Virus record (IMG/VR): IMGVR_UViG_2534682108_000003 | Location: 1 to 33,127 of that record | Reading direction: 5' to 3' (one strand) | DNA: 33,127 nucleotides | Source: a virus | Lineage: Duplodnaviria; Heunggongvirae; Uroviricota; Caudoviricetes | In this document: one piece after another, positions 11,383 through 17,249 of the stretch | Position numbering within the stretch: position 1 is the stretch's first letter | Layout: every line of letters starts with the position of its first letter | Position numbers and translations under genes: made by a program | The notes under the pieces: generated by a model | The model's input: the letters and a program-made list of their open reading frames with translations, nothing else | Told to the model about the DNA's origin: nothing | Databases searched by the model: none

Positions 11383-12108
11383 TTAGGCTGCGGTAGAAAC
11401 ATTAACTAGATTTCTCAATACTTCAACTCCTTTTGAGTTGTAGCGGAATGCTTCCACCTGTTTGCTGGAATGCGCAGATTTATCCAGGAAGAACTTCCCG
11501 TACTGCTCAGTTTTGAGGTTGTTTGCGTTAGCAATGCGACCAATCTTGTTTGCCGTTACTCCAAGCTGCTCTGCAACCTCCCCTGCTGAGTAGTAATGCT
11601 CTTCTATTGCCGGAAGAGGTATTGCATTAAAACCAACGAGCGGGTTGATTATACTTGCTGCCGCTGTCTGCTTTGCCTCCGGCGCAAGATTTGGCATCAG
11701 ATCGAACAGATTGGTAACAGCTTCAACCGTCATTTTCAATGTTCGCGCTTGACGATACTCAACAAGTCCACTCGCTGATTTACCGCTTTTAATGTGCGCT
11801 TCCTGCATACTTTCAAGTTTGTCTACAAGTGTTCGGCGAACTGCTTTAGATTCGCGAGCAGCAACACGAAGCGCCTGCTTGATAGTCATGGAGATAACAT
11901 CAATGTCAGCCCCGTTTTTCCGACCTACACTTTTTGTGTAGGTCTCGCCTTCCAATTCATCCTCAATTTTCTCGATGAATTTGTTGTTACGTACTGATGG
12001 CTCTCCACATAACTTGCGAGCTTCATTAACCATCATCAGAAGACTTTGGCTGTCAATGGTTTTATCCGTGACAACGGATCCGATGTTTGCTACATTCTTA
12101 AAAGTCAT
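11383..12108 (-). CDS. phage antirepressor, KilAC-domain type
   Basis: ATG at 12108 with AAGGAA SD; about 241 aa; product family assigned from my recollection of KilA-C antirepressor sequences; the track ORF to 12192 overlaps the upstream gene and is probably over-extended. Confidence 0.5.
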   Translation of the reverse strand: MTFKNVANIGSVVTDKTIDSQSLLMMVNEARKLCGEPSVRNNKFIEKIEDELEGETYTKSVGRKNGADIDVISMTIKQALRVAARESKAVRRTLVDKLESMQEAHIKSGKSASGLVEYRQARTLKMTVEAVTNLFDLMPNLAPEAKQTAAASIINPLVGFNAIPLPAIEEHYYSAGEVAEQLGVTANKIGRIANANNLKTEQYGKFFLDKSAHSSKQVEAFRYNSKGVEVLRNLVNVSTAA

Positions 12109-12191
12109 TAGGCATTCCTTATGTGGTAGTAAGGGTGTGACATAGGCCGCCAGCAGCACACTGGCGGTTTTTTTCACCGCCAGATGCGTCA

Positions 12192-13106
12192 TTAATACAG
12201 ATGAACAGAAGGCGGCAATTCTTTATTCTTAAGCCTTATCCATGCGGAAAGATTCGTTGGTCCGTCTGGCTCATTAATATCAACATCTCGTGTGTGGTTT
12301 ATTAAAACGTCTCTCGCCATTCCGATAACATACGAGAATTCATGACCGTAGTCGTAGCATCTGCCGGAATAGTTCGATTGAATTTGTTTTAGCGCCGGAT
12401 ACAGTTCGCGGAATAATGCCTGTGAACGGTTGGCATAATCCCATAACCATACAAGGCTGTTTGCTTCTTTTGCAGAAAGCTCGTTGGTTTTCTTCTCTTG
12501 TTTGCCGATGAATTCACCTTCAAGTGGAACTCGAGCTGCAAGTGACAGTGCTTCGGTAAACTGCTCCTCACTGATTTCTTTGTACGAACATCCAAAATGG
12601 GATTTCAGTGACGACCACATGGTGATCATCGCCTTAGCCTGTTTTTCTTTTGGCAGAGACTGACCGCGACTCATGACGAGTTGTTTAATAGCTTCCTGCT
12701 GTTCAGTGGTGATTTTACCAGGCAACGCTTTTTTATCTTTCGGTGTATTTCCGTAAGACCCCGTTTTACGAATGGATGGCAAAACTTCAGCTGTTACCCA
12801 TTTGCGGAATTTGTGCGGGACTGAACCTTTATTGACGGCATCACGGCAGCGCAGAACCAATGTATACATACCTGATTCGCTCACAATGCTTAAATTCTGC
12901 TCACCACCAAGGGTGTAACTTAAAGTTACTCCCTTCTCATCGTCATCAAGTGCAGTAAGCGCCTTGCGTGAGTTAGTCAGGGTTAAAGCATCACAAACAT
13001 CTTTTGCTACAAACCACGGCTCACCGCACTTGTTGATGACGCGGATTTCACTGTCGCCGAATTTGAAGATGGTGAAATCGTTTTGTTCCTTTGCTATACT
13101 TTTCAT
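12192..13106 (-). CDS. phage antirepressor with Bro-N domain (Ant-like)
   Basis: 304-aa ORF; N-terminal Bro-N-like region ([30 protein letters not shown]); located directly downstream of an Arc-like gene, as ant is in P22 immI. Confidence 0.65.
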
Positions 13107-13177
13107 GTCAATATTTCCCGATCAGATTTGTTGATGTAGAAGCCTCGCCAGTTCCCGCTGTCGGGGCTTCGTTATTT

Positions 13178-13339
13178 TTAGAGAGCATTCCGCATTTTCT
13201 CCCGGTACTTCAACCACCAAGCAAGTCCCTGAACCAACACTGAGTTTTCTGACATCCCCTCTTCCTTAGCGATGCGTTTCACCTCCTCCTTAAAACGGTA
13301 CGGATACCGAAGAGTTGTCTTCACTTCATTCTTTTCCAT
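13178..13339 (-). CDS. arc: Arc-like ribbon-helix-helix repressor (53 aa), not in the ORF track
   Basis: Hand-translated: ATG at 13339 with AAGGAG SD 5 nt upstream, TAA at 13178-13180; MEKNEVKTTLRYPYRFKEEVKRIAKEEGMSENSVLVQGLAWWLKYREKMRNAL; pattern parallels P22 Arc as I recall it; divergent from the mnt-like gene. Confidence 0.5.
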   Translation of the reverse strand: MEKNEVKTTLRYPYRFKEEVKRIAKEEGMSENSVLVQGLAWWLKYREKMRNAL

Positions 13340-13441
13340 TGATTACTCCTTTTTACGTAATGGCATTATGCCTTGAAAGCAATATGCCATCATTGAATAT
13401 AAATAGCAATATGCCATCATTGTTTTTTTTGAGGTGATGTT
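13340..13441. promoter_or_regulatory. divergent promoter/operator region between arc-like and mnt-like genes
   Basis: Two 18-bp direct repeats AGCAATATGCCATCATTG (13378-13395 and 13405-13422) plus an inverted copy of the ATGCCAT core at 13360-13375 (AATGGCATTATGCC); flanked by divergent RHH repressor genes. Confidence 0.45.
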
Positions 13442-13762
13442 ATGGCTGAAAAGCAGGTTAAAGATTACGAAAAGTTTGTTGTGCGTTTCCCTGACGGGAT
13501 GAGGGACGCGATTGCGGAGAGAGCCAAACGAAACGGGCGCTCTATGAACTCAGAGATTGTGCAGATACTGGAAGATGCCTTGAATGCAGAAAATACTCTT
13601 GGGGAAATAGCAGACAAAATCAACAGCGTCTCGGTTCCGCTAAATGTTGATGCGCTAGTTCAACTTCAAGCCCAGGTTATCGCCATGCAAAAAGAAATAC
13701 AGGAAAAGTTCAGAGAGCAGAACGAAAAGTTGAGAGAACTACTAAACAAAAAACCCACCTGA
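13442..13762 (+). CDS. mnt: Mnt-like ribbon-helix-helix repressor
   Basis: 106-aa ORF with GAGGTGA SD; N-terminal RHH segment FVVRFPDGMRDAIAERAKRNGRSMNSEIVQILEDAL closely parallels the P22 Mnt N-terminus as I recall it; coiled-coil C-terminus. Confidence 0.65.
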   Translation: MAEKQVKDYEKFVVRFPDGMRDAIAERAKRNGRSMNSEIVQILEDALNAENTLGEIADKINSVSVPLNVDALVQLQAQVIAMQKEIQEKFREQNEKLRELLNKKPT

Positions 13763-13777
13763 CGGTGGGTTTCATAA

Positions 13778-14746
13778 TTAGATTTCTGGTTTCATTCTTC
13801 CGAAAACCTTTTCTATTCCTTTTTCGTATTCTTCTCTTGTCTCACTCATCGCTGCGACACCAAGAAGCTTACCGATATGCTGACGCAAAGCCTTGACACC
13901 AATTTCAGAAAGGAACAGATGCAACTTATCAGATTGTTTTCCGTTCTCGTCTCGGCTGGCTCGAATCTGTTCAAGTATTTTACCTTTACTCTTTGCTAGC
14001 GGGGTGTATATCTGCATGTTGGTTAGCTGCCCAAAACGAATAGGCCGTCCTTTCTCTGGCCTATTCAGTCCGTACAGTCGATACCACTCCTCGTATAGCT
14101 CATCTGGAAATTCCTTTTCATATTGACGAGCCTCTTCACGAACAAACGCTTTGAACTCGTCAATGACAGCCTGAACTTCTGGACGATAACCAGCAAGCGC
14201 ATACGCAACCCCCTTAATTCCCGCCTTAGCGGAGGCATTAATAAGTCTCTGTGCTGCGGCGGCTGCCTTTAACCGTGATTGTGGTAGATCGTCATTATCT
14301 TTGGCTTCTATTAGTGCCCTACCAATATCAACAATTGCTGTAATGTCATAACCTAACGCTTGATGAACGGTTTTAGACTTCGAAGTAAGTTGAAATTTAT
14401 AGGGATTTTCCATTTTTCGCTGCAATTCTAGATCTCGGTATTTGCTCATATACTGAGCGCCAAGCAGTTGATCTAAATCCCTGGCATGTTCACCAATCCC
14501 TAGCAACTGAGATAATCCAGTTTTCGTAACAACGACAGTTTTCGACTCGTCATCCAGTACATAACATTCAGCATCAATGCCAAAATCATCTAAAAAGTTA
14601 CCACGATGAGTTGCCCTGAGAATCTTACTTTTCCATCTTGCAGCAGCTGCTTTCTTTGCTATTTCAGAACGCTGCTCTTTAGTCAGCGATTTTGCGCGAG
14701 CGATCCCGCCCTTGGCTTTCCCTTCGCCACTTTTCTTTTCAGTCAT
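13778..14746 (-). CDS. P63C-like phage protein, putative DNA-binding (322 aa)
   Basis: ATG at 14746; N-terminal basic motif KGGIARAKSLTKEQRSEIAKKAAAARW, which I recall as common in P63C-type phage proteins; the track ORF extension to 14848 runs into the promoter and is rejected. Confidence 0.45.
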   Translation of the reverse strand: MTEKKSGEGKAKGGIARAKSLTKEQRSEIAKKAAAARWKSKILRATHRGNFLDDFGIDAECYVLDDESKTVVVTKTGLSQLLGIGEHARDLDQLLGAQYMSKYRDLELQRKMENPYKFQLTSKSKTVHQALGYDITAIVDIGRALIEAKDNDDLPQSRLKAAAAAQRLINASAKAGIKGVAYALAGYRPEVQAVIDEFKAFVREEARQYEKEFPDELYEEWYRLYGLNRPEKGRPIRFGQLTNMQIYTPLAKSKGKILEQIRASRDENGKQSDKLHLFLSEIGVKALRQHIGKLLGVAAMSETREEYEKGIEKVFGRMKPEI

Positions 14747-14955
14747 AATGCAAGCACCTTTGCTGTGATATATGCTTGCATTATATGCACTGTACCCACA
14801 TACAAGCAAGCATAAAACAAAAGAAAAATGCTTGCATTGCAACCGCACTACTCCAACTACACAGTATCATCTGGTATCCTGCGCAAAACTAACTGTTGCG
14901 TGCTTTTGCTTCAGTTAACGGATACAAACATAGGAAACGTTACAAGGGGAAAGCT
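14747..14955. promoter_or_regulatory. divergent intergenic region with repeated ATGCTTGCAT motif
   Basis: Direct copies ATGCTTGCAT at 14772-14781 and 14828-14837, inverted copy ATGCAAGCA at 14748-14756 and a related CAAGCAAGCAT at 14803-14813, between two divergently oriented genes. Confidence 0.4.
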
Positions 14956-15429
14956 GTGGAACAAGTGATTAAAGTTACAGCAATTGCCATTATCCTTCTC
15001 ACCATGTCACCCATTACAGCAACGGCAAAAAAAATTAATGTTTTGAATGGCTATCCACAGGAAGTAACGACCATTATTAATGACCCTAAAAATGAAGTGG
15101 TAATGATTAAGTCATTTAATGTCGATTCTTCCGGGTGTGACGTCAGGGAGCAAATGATGCTGATAGATAAAATCACAATGGACTCAGACGATAGATACCC
15201 AGAAAAAATGACATTCAGAGATATGCAAAACATGCGAATAAGCATGCCAACAAATTTTTCTTCTTTAGATAATGCCAGCAGATCATGGACTGATAGCATG
15301 TTCTCAGAAAACGAATGGGTAAATGTTCAATATTTACTTTGCGGCTCTGGAGGATTCCCACAAATGACTTCCATATCCAAGCATTCAAAGAGGTTCCCTA
15401 AAGTTGGTGTAACGATAGGTAGCAAGTAA
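14956..15429 (+). CDS. secreted/periplasmic hypothetical protein (moron)
   Basis: GTG at 14956 with AAGGGGA SD; N-terminal signal-peptide-like segment VTAIAIILLTMSPITATA followed by a hydrophilic domain with two Cys; plus strand, convergent with the tape-measure gene; the track TTG start at 14896 is doubtful. Confidence 0.4.
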   Translation: MEQVIKVTAIAIILLTMSPITATAKKINVLNGYPQEVTTIINDPKNEVVMIKSFNVDSSGCDVREQMMLIDKITMDSDDRYPEKMTFRDMQNMRISMPTNFSSLDNASRSWTDSMFSENEWVNVQYLLCGSGGFPQMTSISKHSKRFPKVGVTIGSK

Positions 15430-15431
15430 TA

Positions 15432-17249
15432 TTAAGGATTCACTCCACTAGAAAATGCCGCGTTTGTTGACACCCGGCTAACTTGCTGATTGACACTTCT
15501 GGTAAGAGCATCAACTGTTGTCGGGTTACTGTTAACAACAACCGTGCCAATAGTTGTACTGCTGCTACGACTGTTGTCAATTTTTGATGTTGTCTGGCTT
15601 GGTGTTGAAGCGATGCGTTGCTGCTGCTGATAGTAAGCCAGCGTCTCGTTTTCTTTTGCATTAAGAGCAGCGCGAATCTTTGGCACATATTCTCGCGTCT
15701 CTTTCGGTAAGGTGTTCCAGTATTTGGATGATGGTGAATCAAACCCGGTACTGGATATGTATTTTAACTTTTTGTCTACATTGCCCATCCCCCAGTTGTA
15801 AGCCATCAGCGCATGGTTAACATTGCCTTTGTAATGCTTTAGCAAATACTGCATGTACTTTGTGACTGCTGTGCGGGATTTTTCTTCATCAAGTCTCTCA
15901 TCAATTCCATCACCAACTTTCAGGCCTAACTCTCTAGCTGTATCAGGCATAAGCTGATAAGGTCCCGCAGCGCCTCTCGAACTGAAAAGATTTTTACCAC
16001 CACTCGATTCCACCTCACGAATGGCATCAAGAAGAGAATCCATGCTTACAGGCTTTACTCCGTCAGGGAGAGGGATATCTGGCTGAATGTTATTGCCATA
16101 AATCTCATCTCCCCTACGCCCAAAATCGGTGTCAAACCCCATGCTGCGCATGGTATCTCCAAGTTCACGCTTAGAGTAATCAAACGATCCTTTAGCTGCA
16201 CCCTCAATGTTTTCCCTGTCATTGTAGAGGTACAAACCATATGCTATTAACCCAGCCAACCATGGAGGAAGGGCACCGCCTGTAAGTTTGCTTCCTACAT
16301 ATGCTGCTGCCAATAGCTTCAGAGCCTCTTCCGCACCACCAACTGCCTTTGTGAATTGCTTCGTCATATTCCCGGCGTCATTGAAAAAGCCAATGATGTC
16401 GCCATGATGTTTCTCAATCCAGGAACCAAAAGCCTTCATCCCGTCAATAACGTCTGGAGCGAATGCCATGGCTAAATTTTGCTTTAATCGGGAAAACTCT
16501 GAATCAAGTTGCCCAAGAGTGGCAGCAACCTTCTCCTGCTCTTTTACCTGCTGTGCTGTAATACGGGATTTCTTTGTTTCTGAATCGACAAGCTGCTTAA
16601 GTTCCCCTGATTTTATTTTAGCGGCATCTGTCGGATCGAACCCTGCGGCAGCCATCACCTGCATCAGGTTTTCTTGAGAATGAGTCTTGCCATAGCGAGA
16701 AAACTCAGCAAGAGCCTTGTTTGGGTCGCCGAGCTTATTGATATCTAATCCGGTACGAGCGCCAAGAACCAGCAAATTTTGGGCAGCGCCAGTAAGCCCT
16801 CCCATAACAGTTGGATCGGCAATATTTGCCAAAGCCATTCTGGCATTCCCAGAAGATGAAATGAACGAGTCACCGTTAAGACCAGCCTGCCGAAATCCCC
16901 GCTGAACACCAAACATCTTATTAACATCAGAGCCGAAAAACTTGGCCTGTTGACTGGCTCTCACAATTTCGTTGGCAGTAGATGTAAAAAGTTGCTTGAT
17001 TCCATACAACCCGGCGCCGATTCCCAAAAATCCAGCGGCTGCTGTTGTTACGTTGCGGAAAGCTGAAACAGCGGTTTTACCGAACCTCTCCGTTTCCTGT
17101 CGCTGTTTTTCAAGTTCCTTTAGCCTTTCCTTCTCAGCCCTGGAAAGATCTTTGTTTAATTTACTAACTTCATCTTTTACTTTCCGTTTTCCATTCAGGA
17201 ATTCATCGGCCTTAATTGTGACCTTGTAGGCCAACTCATTGATAATCAT
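15432..17249 (-). CDS. tail tape measure protein with internal lytic transglycosylase (SLT) domain
   Basis: 605-aa ORF; coiled-coil N-terminus, Gly/Ala-rich central region, SLT-like motifs (ESSGGKNLFSSRGAAGPYQLMP...AYNWGMGN); follows the tail chaperone genes. Confidence 0.7.
   Translation of the reverse strand: MIINELAYKVTIKADEFLNGKRKVKDEVSKLNKDLSRAEKERLKELEKQRQETERFGKTAVSAFRNVTTAAAGFLGIGAGLYGIKQLFTSTANEIVRASQQAKFFGSDVNKMFGVQRGFRQAGLNGDSFISSSGNARMALANIADPTVMGGLTGAAQNLLVLGARTGLDINKLGDPNKALAEFSRYGKTHSQENLMQVMAAAGFDPTDAAKIKSGELKQLVDSETKKSRITAQQVKEQEKVAATLGQLDSEFSRLKQNLAMAFAPDVIDGMKAFGSWIEKHHGDIIGFFNDAGNMTKQFTKAVGGAEEALKLLAAAYVGSKLTGGALPPWLAGLIAYGLYLYNDRENIEGAAKGSFDYSKRELGDTMRSMGFDTDFGRRGDEIYGNNIQPDIPLPDGVKPVSMDSLLDAIREVESSGGKNLFSSRGAAGPYQLMPDTARELGLKVGDGIDERLDEEKSRTAVTKYMQYLLKHYKGNVNHALMAYNWGMGNVDKKLKYISSTGFDSPSSKYWNTLPKETREYVPKIRAALNAKENETLAYYQQQQRIASTPSQTTSKIDNSRSSSTTIGTVVVNSNPTTVDALTRSVNQQVSRVSTNAAFSSGVNP

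Follow-up and report, generated by a model that had tools for sequence, protein, structure and literature searches.

The spacer between the arc-like gene and the antirepressor gene ant of an Escherichia coli prophage very probably encodes, on the plus strand, a cis-antisense small RNA homologous to sar of phage P22. The window analyzed is the whole of IMG/VR record IMGVR_UViG_2534682108_000003, 33,127 nt in length. In P22, the literature has sar blocking ant translation by occluding the ribosome-binding site, and the RNA is annotated in P22-like phages. A preliminary description of the window had proposed a sar-like antisense RNA for this spacer, with an attenuator as an alternative, and the antisense part of that proposal is now supported by synteny, a promoter-like site, a sub-threshold full-length Rfam match, the predicted fold, covariation, and strand asymmetry. 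That the RNA is produced, that its ends fall where we place them, and that it represses Ant are each suggested by homology to the P22 system.

The window is recognizable as an E. coli prophage by an integrase gene beside a tRNA and by genes for tail sheath, baseplate, portal, and terminase. The tRNA, at 3424-3495, directly precedes the integrase gene (3624-4817) and probably serves as the attachment site, and two adjacent tRNAs are found on the minus strand at 31878-32030, near the opposite end of the window. The module corresponding to P22 immI has the baseplate genes on one side and a lytic tail/tape-measure-like gene (15432-17249) on the other. Its features, as found or predicted, are these:

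12192-13106, minus strand: ant antirepressor gene, 304 aa, with Bro-N and P22_AR_C domains by Pfam; the presumed target mRNA.
13072-13100, plus strand: Psar-like promoter from the promoter scan, lying opposite the first ant codons.
13107-13179, plus strand: sar-like antisense RNA, predicted at about 73 nt and placed by the Rfam match, the fold, and the P22 annotation, with its ends inferred.
13107-13135, plus strand: 5′ stem-loop, present in the minimum-energy and centroid structures and with covariation.
13139-13170, plus strand: 3′ hairpin GAAGCCUCGCCAGU-UCCC-GCUGUCGGGGCUUC, 14 stacked positions with one C·U mismatch.
13171-13180, plus strand: U-tract tail GUUAUUUUUA, completing an intrinsic terminator on this strand only.
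13178-13339, minus strand: arc-like gene for a 53-aa ribbon-helix-helix repressor, preceding ant in their shared operon.
13360-13422, no strand assigned: candidate operators (a repeat and a near-palindrome) where the arc and mnt promoters diverge, given as context outside sar.
13442-13762, plus strand: mnt-like Arc-family repressor gene, divergent from arc (Pfam Arc, 69.9 bits).

By the ORF listing of the window, the arc-ant gap is 71 nt, 13107 to 13177. The ant ATG is at 13104-13106, the earliest start available downstream of an in-frame stop, and G13107 adjoins its complement; at the other side of the gap, the arc-like stop codon is 13178-13180. PHROGs classes the 53-aa protein as Arc-like (phrog_582, E = 1.6e-10), and its match to Pfam Arc is weak, at 17.5 bits for a cut-off of 20.4. 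The gene order of mnt-like, arc-like, gap, and ant is syntenic with P22 immI. Candidates for the Arc-like or Mnt-like operators are an 18-nt exact direct repeat, AGCAATATGCCATCATTG, at 13378-13395 and 13405-13422 with a 27-nt spacing, and the near-palindrome ATGGCATTATGCCTT at 13360-13374. A second anti-repressor gene, 11383-12192 on the minus strand, abuts the ant stop codon and matches phrog_1726 (E = 9e-99); the match begins at residue 29, so the real start of this gene may be an internal Met. Beyond the mnt-like gene, a 10-bp hairpin, GAAACCCACC-GTCA-GGTGGGTTTT, at 13750-13773 between the convergent mnt-like and P63C-domain (13778-14848) genes looks like a shared or bidirectional terminator.

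At its gathering thresholds, Rfam reports three tRNAs and no sar over the whole window. A permissive local search of 12950-13450 gives as its best match sar, RF00262, at 13108-13174 on the plus strand, covering model positions 1-68 of 68 with 28.5 bits and E = 0.0011 (for 4227 families and 501 nt), which is below the 43-bit gathering threshold. How such a score should be read is indicated by the relatives. Positions 13050-13170 of the window (121 nt) are 87.6-90.1% identical to the Escherichia phages Kapi1, PhiR12, and EC.P3 (E ≤ 2e-34), and against RF00262 the elements of Kapi1 and PhiR12_1 reach 72.4 and 69.4 bits. Because these Kapi1-type relatives are both similar to the window copy and above the threshold, they link it to accepted members of the family. 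Sar was matched in 16 of the 20 relatives searched, with scores running continuously from 92 to 32 bits and six of the 16 below threshold at 32-38 bits; the window copy is at the low end of this continuum. A leave-one-out nhmmer profile matches the window with E = 1.7e-12, or 8.4e-11 when the GTCAATA class is omitted, but we discount this match as partly circular, the family having been gathered by a pattern that the window matches. As for location, the element is intercistronic between arc and ant, opposite to ant, and overlaps the ant ribosome-binding site. A c4-type antisense RNA was also considered and rejected: there is no c4-type Rfam family in the window or in 12950-13450, where the matches besides sar are weak and attributable to chance, and the structured strand is the one opposite to ant.

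The GC-rich hairpin that had been pointed out in the gap is there, as GAAGCCTCGCCAGTTCCCGCTGTCGGGGCTTC at 13139-13170 (32 nt), and it is upstream of the ant ribosome-binding region as described, 32 nt 5′ of the ATG in the ant-sense direction. Folding the plus strand places this hairpin second of two in a 74-nt segment, 13107-13180, with an energy of −26.4 kcal/mol and agreement between the minimum-energy and centroid structures. Dinucleotide shuffles of the segment average −13.35 ± 2.68 kcal/mol (z = −4.87), with none of 200 as good. The first hairpin has the stem arms GUCAAUA (13107-13113) and UGUUGAU (13129-13135) around a 15-nt loop, UUUCCCGAUCAGAUU, which holds the complement of the Shine-Dalgarno-like GGGA(A) of ant. 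Directly 3′ of the second hairpin is GUUAUUUUU, giving it the appearance of a terminator, so that the predicted RNA has the 2-hairpin architecture of sar, an anti-Shine-Dalgarno loop in the 5′ hairpin and a terminator hairpin at the 3′ side. The 5′ end would be G13107 and the 3′ end would fall within the U-run, 13175-13180, overlapping the arc stop codon. In the whole window there is a single match to the hairpin motif, against 0.04 expected.

Whether the structure has been selected as RNA can be asked of the homologues. IMG/VR was scanned with the pattern GAAGCC-N6-GTT-N9-GGGGCTT, in which the outer terminator arms and the GTT are fixed. The scan finds 120 loci, the addition of the P22, GF-2, PhiR5_1, Kapi1, and PhiR12 reference loci brings the matches to 125, and 115 of the 125 matches have the start-codon complement CAT 30-55 nt upstream, itself preceded by TAnnnT. 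As a control, the same pattern was run genome-wide, and there 9 of 120 pass the CAT and TAnnnT filter; the genome-wide matches are mostly unrelated GC-rich terminators from many phyla, although those in Pectobacterium and Enterobacter look genuine. The pattern also matched a separate conserved element found repeatedly among Hymenobacter species (…CACCCACTTCCT/CTTCTT, then GAAGCCCCGG…GGGGCTTC and a U-run; loci L166, L168, L171, L173, L198, L199, L201, L234, and L238) that is unrelated to sar. Among 23 representatives, the downstream genes are nearly all of the antirepressor type, with 10 Bro-N, 5 P22_AR_N, 3 ORF6N, 2 KilA-N, 1 Rha, and 1 ANT domains.

Across the homologues, the first paired base of the 5′ hairpin is at or beside the predicted +1. 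Stems anchored at +1 have a mean length of 6.15 bp versus 4.18 ± 0.18 in shuffles, none of 500 of which reach 6.15, and the 5′ hairpins include 27 distinct outer-arm pairs. For covariation, 53 distinct variants were placed in an N-padded structural alignment; a plain MAFFT alignment was set aside for pair counting since it put the 5′ hairpin arms out of register. In the structural alignment, 96.0% of the cells are paired versus 33-47% for slid registers, the first figure being inflated by setting the helix-1 register with a best-stem rule and by the outer terminator pairs that the pattern fixes. The shuffle, slide, and free-inner-pair results are independent of both. Changes on both sides of a pair occupy 96 cells, where shuffles give 14.7 ± 3.7 and none of 500 has as many, and they are found in all 6 of the helix-1 pairs and in the 4 inner helix-2 pairs left free by the pattern.

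The main competing explanation is that the hairpin works within the ant-sense transcript. It could be an intrinsic terminator or attenuator separating arc from ant, or a structure at the 3′ end of the arc mRNA for stabilization or processing, and no dedicated antisense RNA would be required. The hairpin does form on the minus strand, with 11 pairs in the minimum-energy structure, and it comes directly after the arc stop codon. The minus strand over this region, however, folds no better than its shuffles (−16.7 kcal/mol, an energy reached by 32 of 200; z = −0.98), and there UACAUCAACAAAUC follows the hairpin, with the U-tract absent. Among the homologues, 65 of 65 variants fold better in the sar sense than in the ant sense, with means of −28.9 versus −20.2 kcal/mol, because the frequent G·U pairs would be C·A on the other strand. 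An ant-sense function would also leave unexplained both the TGnTAnnnT found at a fixed distance from the ATG complement and the covarying 5′ hairpin, whose first base is exactly at +1. We consider this reading improbable, with the proviso that a role of the hairpin in mRNA processing or stability could coexist with sar. The attenuator suggested earlier fares no better: in the ant-sense direction the hairpin is weaker and runs into UACAUCAACAAA, not a U-tract, and an intrinsic terminator or attenuator, taken as hairpin plus U-tract, is not formed on the minus strand, where UACAUCAACA comes after the hairpin. The terminator scan finds sites at the arc-ant gap only on the plus strand. Because of the strand-specific fold, the U-tract, and the terminator scan, the hairpin at 13139-13170 is, on these predictions, a plus-strand intrinsic terminator and not an arc-ant attenuator.

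An antisense RNA of this kind should have its own promoter, and a search for a plus-strand promoter near 13100 had been suggested. The scan finds a candidate extended −10 site at 13072-13100 with the layout of P22 Psar: a −35 of GTGAAA at 13072-13077, a 17-nt spacer, and an extended −10 of TGc-TATACT with the TG at 13092-13093 and the hexamer at 13095-13100, for 9 of 12 consensus matches plus the TG. At the sequence level, this GTGAAA-17-TGcTATACT would start transcription beside the ATG complement. The hexamer ends 6 nt before G13107 and is complementary to ant codons 3-4 (AGT ATA). Taken alone the match is not significant, since 2 sites were found versus 3.3 expected from shuffles of a 2.2-kb stretch. 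The homologues add to it, with TGn in 49 of 59 distinct upstream contexts and a 6-nt distance from the end of the −10 to +1 in 48 of 59, and neither the TGn nor the 6-nt distance was used in the homologue filter. Codons 3-5 often read S-[I/V/L]-A across antirepressor N-termini that are not homologous to each other (Bro-N, P22_AR_N, ORF6N, KilA-N, and Rha), and these codons are the complement of the Psar TGnTAnnnT.

The insignificance of the promoter match on its own, together with the fact that GAAGCC...GGGGCTT hairpins are common generic terminators across bacteria, gives some room to the idea that the hairpin is a mere plus-strand terminator for stray antisense transcription through ant, with the −10-like site a by-product of codons and no discrete RNA. 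Against a codon by-product, the TGnTAnnnT is kept across those non-homologous N-terminal domains, and the residue at codon 4 varies among I, V, and L, yet the hexamer keeps its T, A, and T. Neither would a mere terminator be expected to come with a 5′ hairpin that starts at the predicted +1 and covaries, and the homologous P22 element is an experimentally characterized RNA of 68-69 nt. These observations make the idea of a mere terminator very unlikely.

A reading that we find scarcely credible is that the spacer is coding, with either an ant start further upstream or the small plus-strand ORF at 13091-13243 (50 aa) as the real feature. Mechanical ORFs do run across the spacer, at 13091..13243 on the plus strand and 13122..13220 on the minus strand, and the public records of GF-2, Kapi1, and PhiR5_1 have annotated ant starts overlapping arc. 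In the window, however, no ant start is possible between the in-frame stop and the ATG at 13106, and the homologous ATG is at a conserved fixed distance from the −10. Moreover, the spacer before the hairpin ranges from 30 to 40 nt among the homologues in steps that are not multiples of three, and its substitutions preserve pairs and are not codon-like. The antirepressor starts called through the sar region in GF-2, PhiR5_1, and Kapi1 (L002, L003, and L004) are probably mis-called. Sar is unannotated in the records of these three and in those of PhiR12 and EC.P3.

On the model of P22, the antisense RNA most likely blocks translation of the antirepressor. RNA polymerase would initiate at the extended −10 promoter embedded in ant codons 2-5, the transcript would start at G13107, beside the complement of the ant AUG, and it would end at the hairpin and U-run, 13139-13180. 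The resulting RNA of about 73 nt would be fully complementary to the ant leader, with the 5′ hairpin displaying the anti-Shine-Dalgarno in its 15-nt loop. Pairing with the arc-ant mRNA, or with late read-through mRNA, would then occlude the ant ribosome-binding site and the flank of the start codon, and antirepressor synthesis would be limited post-transcriptionally, on top of transcriptional repression by the Arc-like and Mnt-like proteins. The Shine-Dalgarno of ant is weak, GGGA(A) at about 9 nt from the AUG, and its assignment is tentative; a similarly long spacing is found in P22. P22 sar reportedly exerts its effect chiefly in infection or induction, at times of active Pant or late transcription. 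The P22 Psar is stimulated by convergent transcription from Pant.

As to how the element is distributed, near matches to the window in a 50,697-record phage collection are confined, within the 5000-29000 portion considered, to the immI module at about 12200-14900. Eight complete E. coli genomes have a copy covering at least 80% of a 551-nt query, seven of them at least 98.5% identical and one 90.3% identical, and the one RefSeq copy inspected has no ncRNA feature in the spacer. The exact sar of the window, with the same arc, is found with 2 different Ant N-terminal domains. Window positions 13107-13339 were compared with loci L011, L044, L059, and L004, and L011 has sar and arc identical to the window with an Ant of the P22_AR_N type. 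Because the Ant N-terminus is swapped in L011 and the homology of the Kapi1 type stops at 13170, mosaic joints flank sar on both sides.

This mosaicism raises the question of what sar is as a unit of exchange. One proposal, which we put forward as speculative and rather doubtful, is that sar is a portable antisense cassette and a recombination joint between arc-type and ant-type modules, with its 5′ hairpins as specificity types. If so, the cassette would have four parts: a Psar −10 that holds ant codons 3-5 to S-[I/V/L]-A, the +1, a 5′ hairpin that varies, and a terminator that is conserved. It would then be common to non-homologous antirepressor families and to different phage morphotypes instead of being a P22-like peculiarity, at least 23 classes of 5′-hairpin arms would decide which ant mRNAs of co-resident or superinfecting phages are silenced in trans, and the window copy would be one specificity type.

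Apart from that proposal, the window element is, judged from its sequence, a divergent sar family member that carries no annotation and belongs to an unusual host element, and its mechanism is the one already known. The understanding of mechanism is unchanged, as the host element is new but the paradigm is that of P22. The immI-type control of an antirepressor in 3 layers, Mnt-like, Arc-like, and antisense RNA, would have travelled as a unit into a contractile-tail prophage. There is a practical consequence for annotation in that the curated Rfam threshold misses this branch of sar, with the window at 28.5 bits and 6 relatives at 32-38 bits. Since sar is unannotated and below the Rfam threshold, the control of antirepressors in such prophages will probably be mistaken for a purely protein-based one.

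The closest comparison is with P22 itself, where sar also occupies the interval from the stop of arc to the start of ant, on the strand opposite to ant. The P22 record places Psar, a 29-nt site, at 15097-15125 on the minus strand, within the opening codons of ant, and its 6+17+6 arrangement is that of 13072-13100. In the same record, sar begins at 15090, one base ahead of the ant ATG, and finishes at 15021, within the stop codon of arc. P22 sar is likewise about 70 nt, with a 5′ hairpin having an anti-Shine-Dalgarno loop and a terminator hairpin of 14 positions. Both genomes have an identical TTGCTATACT block at the −10, and the terminator hairpins are identical at 25 of 32 positions with the arms conserved; the seven substitutions include one mismatch and a U-A to A-U swap. 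In contrast, all six pairs of the 5′ hairpin differ on both sides, with GUUGGU/ACUGAC in P22 and UCAAUA/UGUUGA in the window. The window has the better U-run, GUUAUUUUU versus AACUUUA in P22. The surrounding proteins differ as well, as the Ant N-terminal domain is Bro-N in the window and P22_AR_N in P22, and the Arc proteins are only distantly related. The host elements are also unlike, a contractile-tail E. coli prophage for the window and a P22-like podovirus for P22.

Kapi1 and PhiR12 have the same ant N-terminus and Psar as the window and nearly the same 5′ hairpin, but they carry a terminator inner stem of the P22 type and a different arc gene. Edwardsiella phage GF-2 is 81.7% identical to the window over arc, the spacer, and the 5′ end of ant, but its 5′ region folds otherwise, with a short UCGG/CCGA stem. 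Two further phage antisense RNAs invite comparison. The c4 RNA of P1 and P7 is likewise small, blocks the ribosome-binding region of an antirepressor (ant) mRNA, and has its recognition sequences in loops. It is processed from a same-sense transcript upstream of ant and has separate target sites, and so is not a convergent cis-antisense RNA. The lambda OOP RNA, one of the short cis-antisense RNAs that end in an intrinsic terminator, is, as proposed for the window element, a convergent antisense RNA of about 70 nt. It has a promoter and a terminator of its own and modulates a regulator of the lysis-lysogeny choice. OOP overlaps the 3′ end of cII, acts via RNase III-dependent decay, and has no sequence or structural relationship to the window element.
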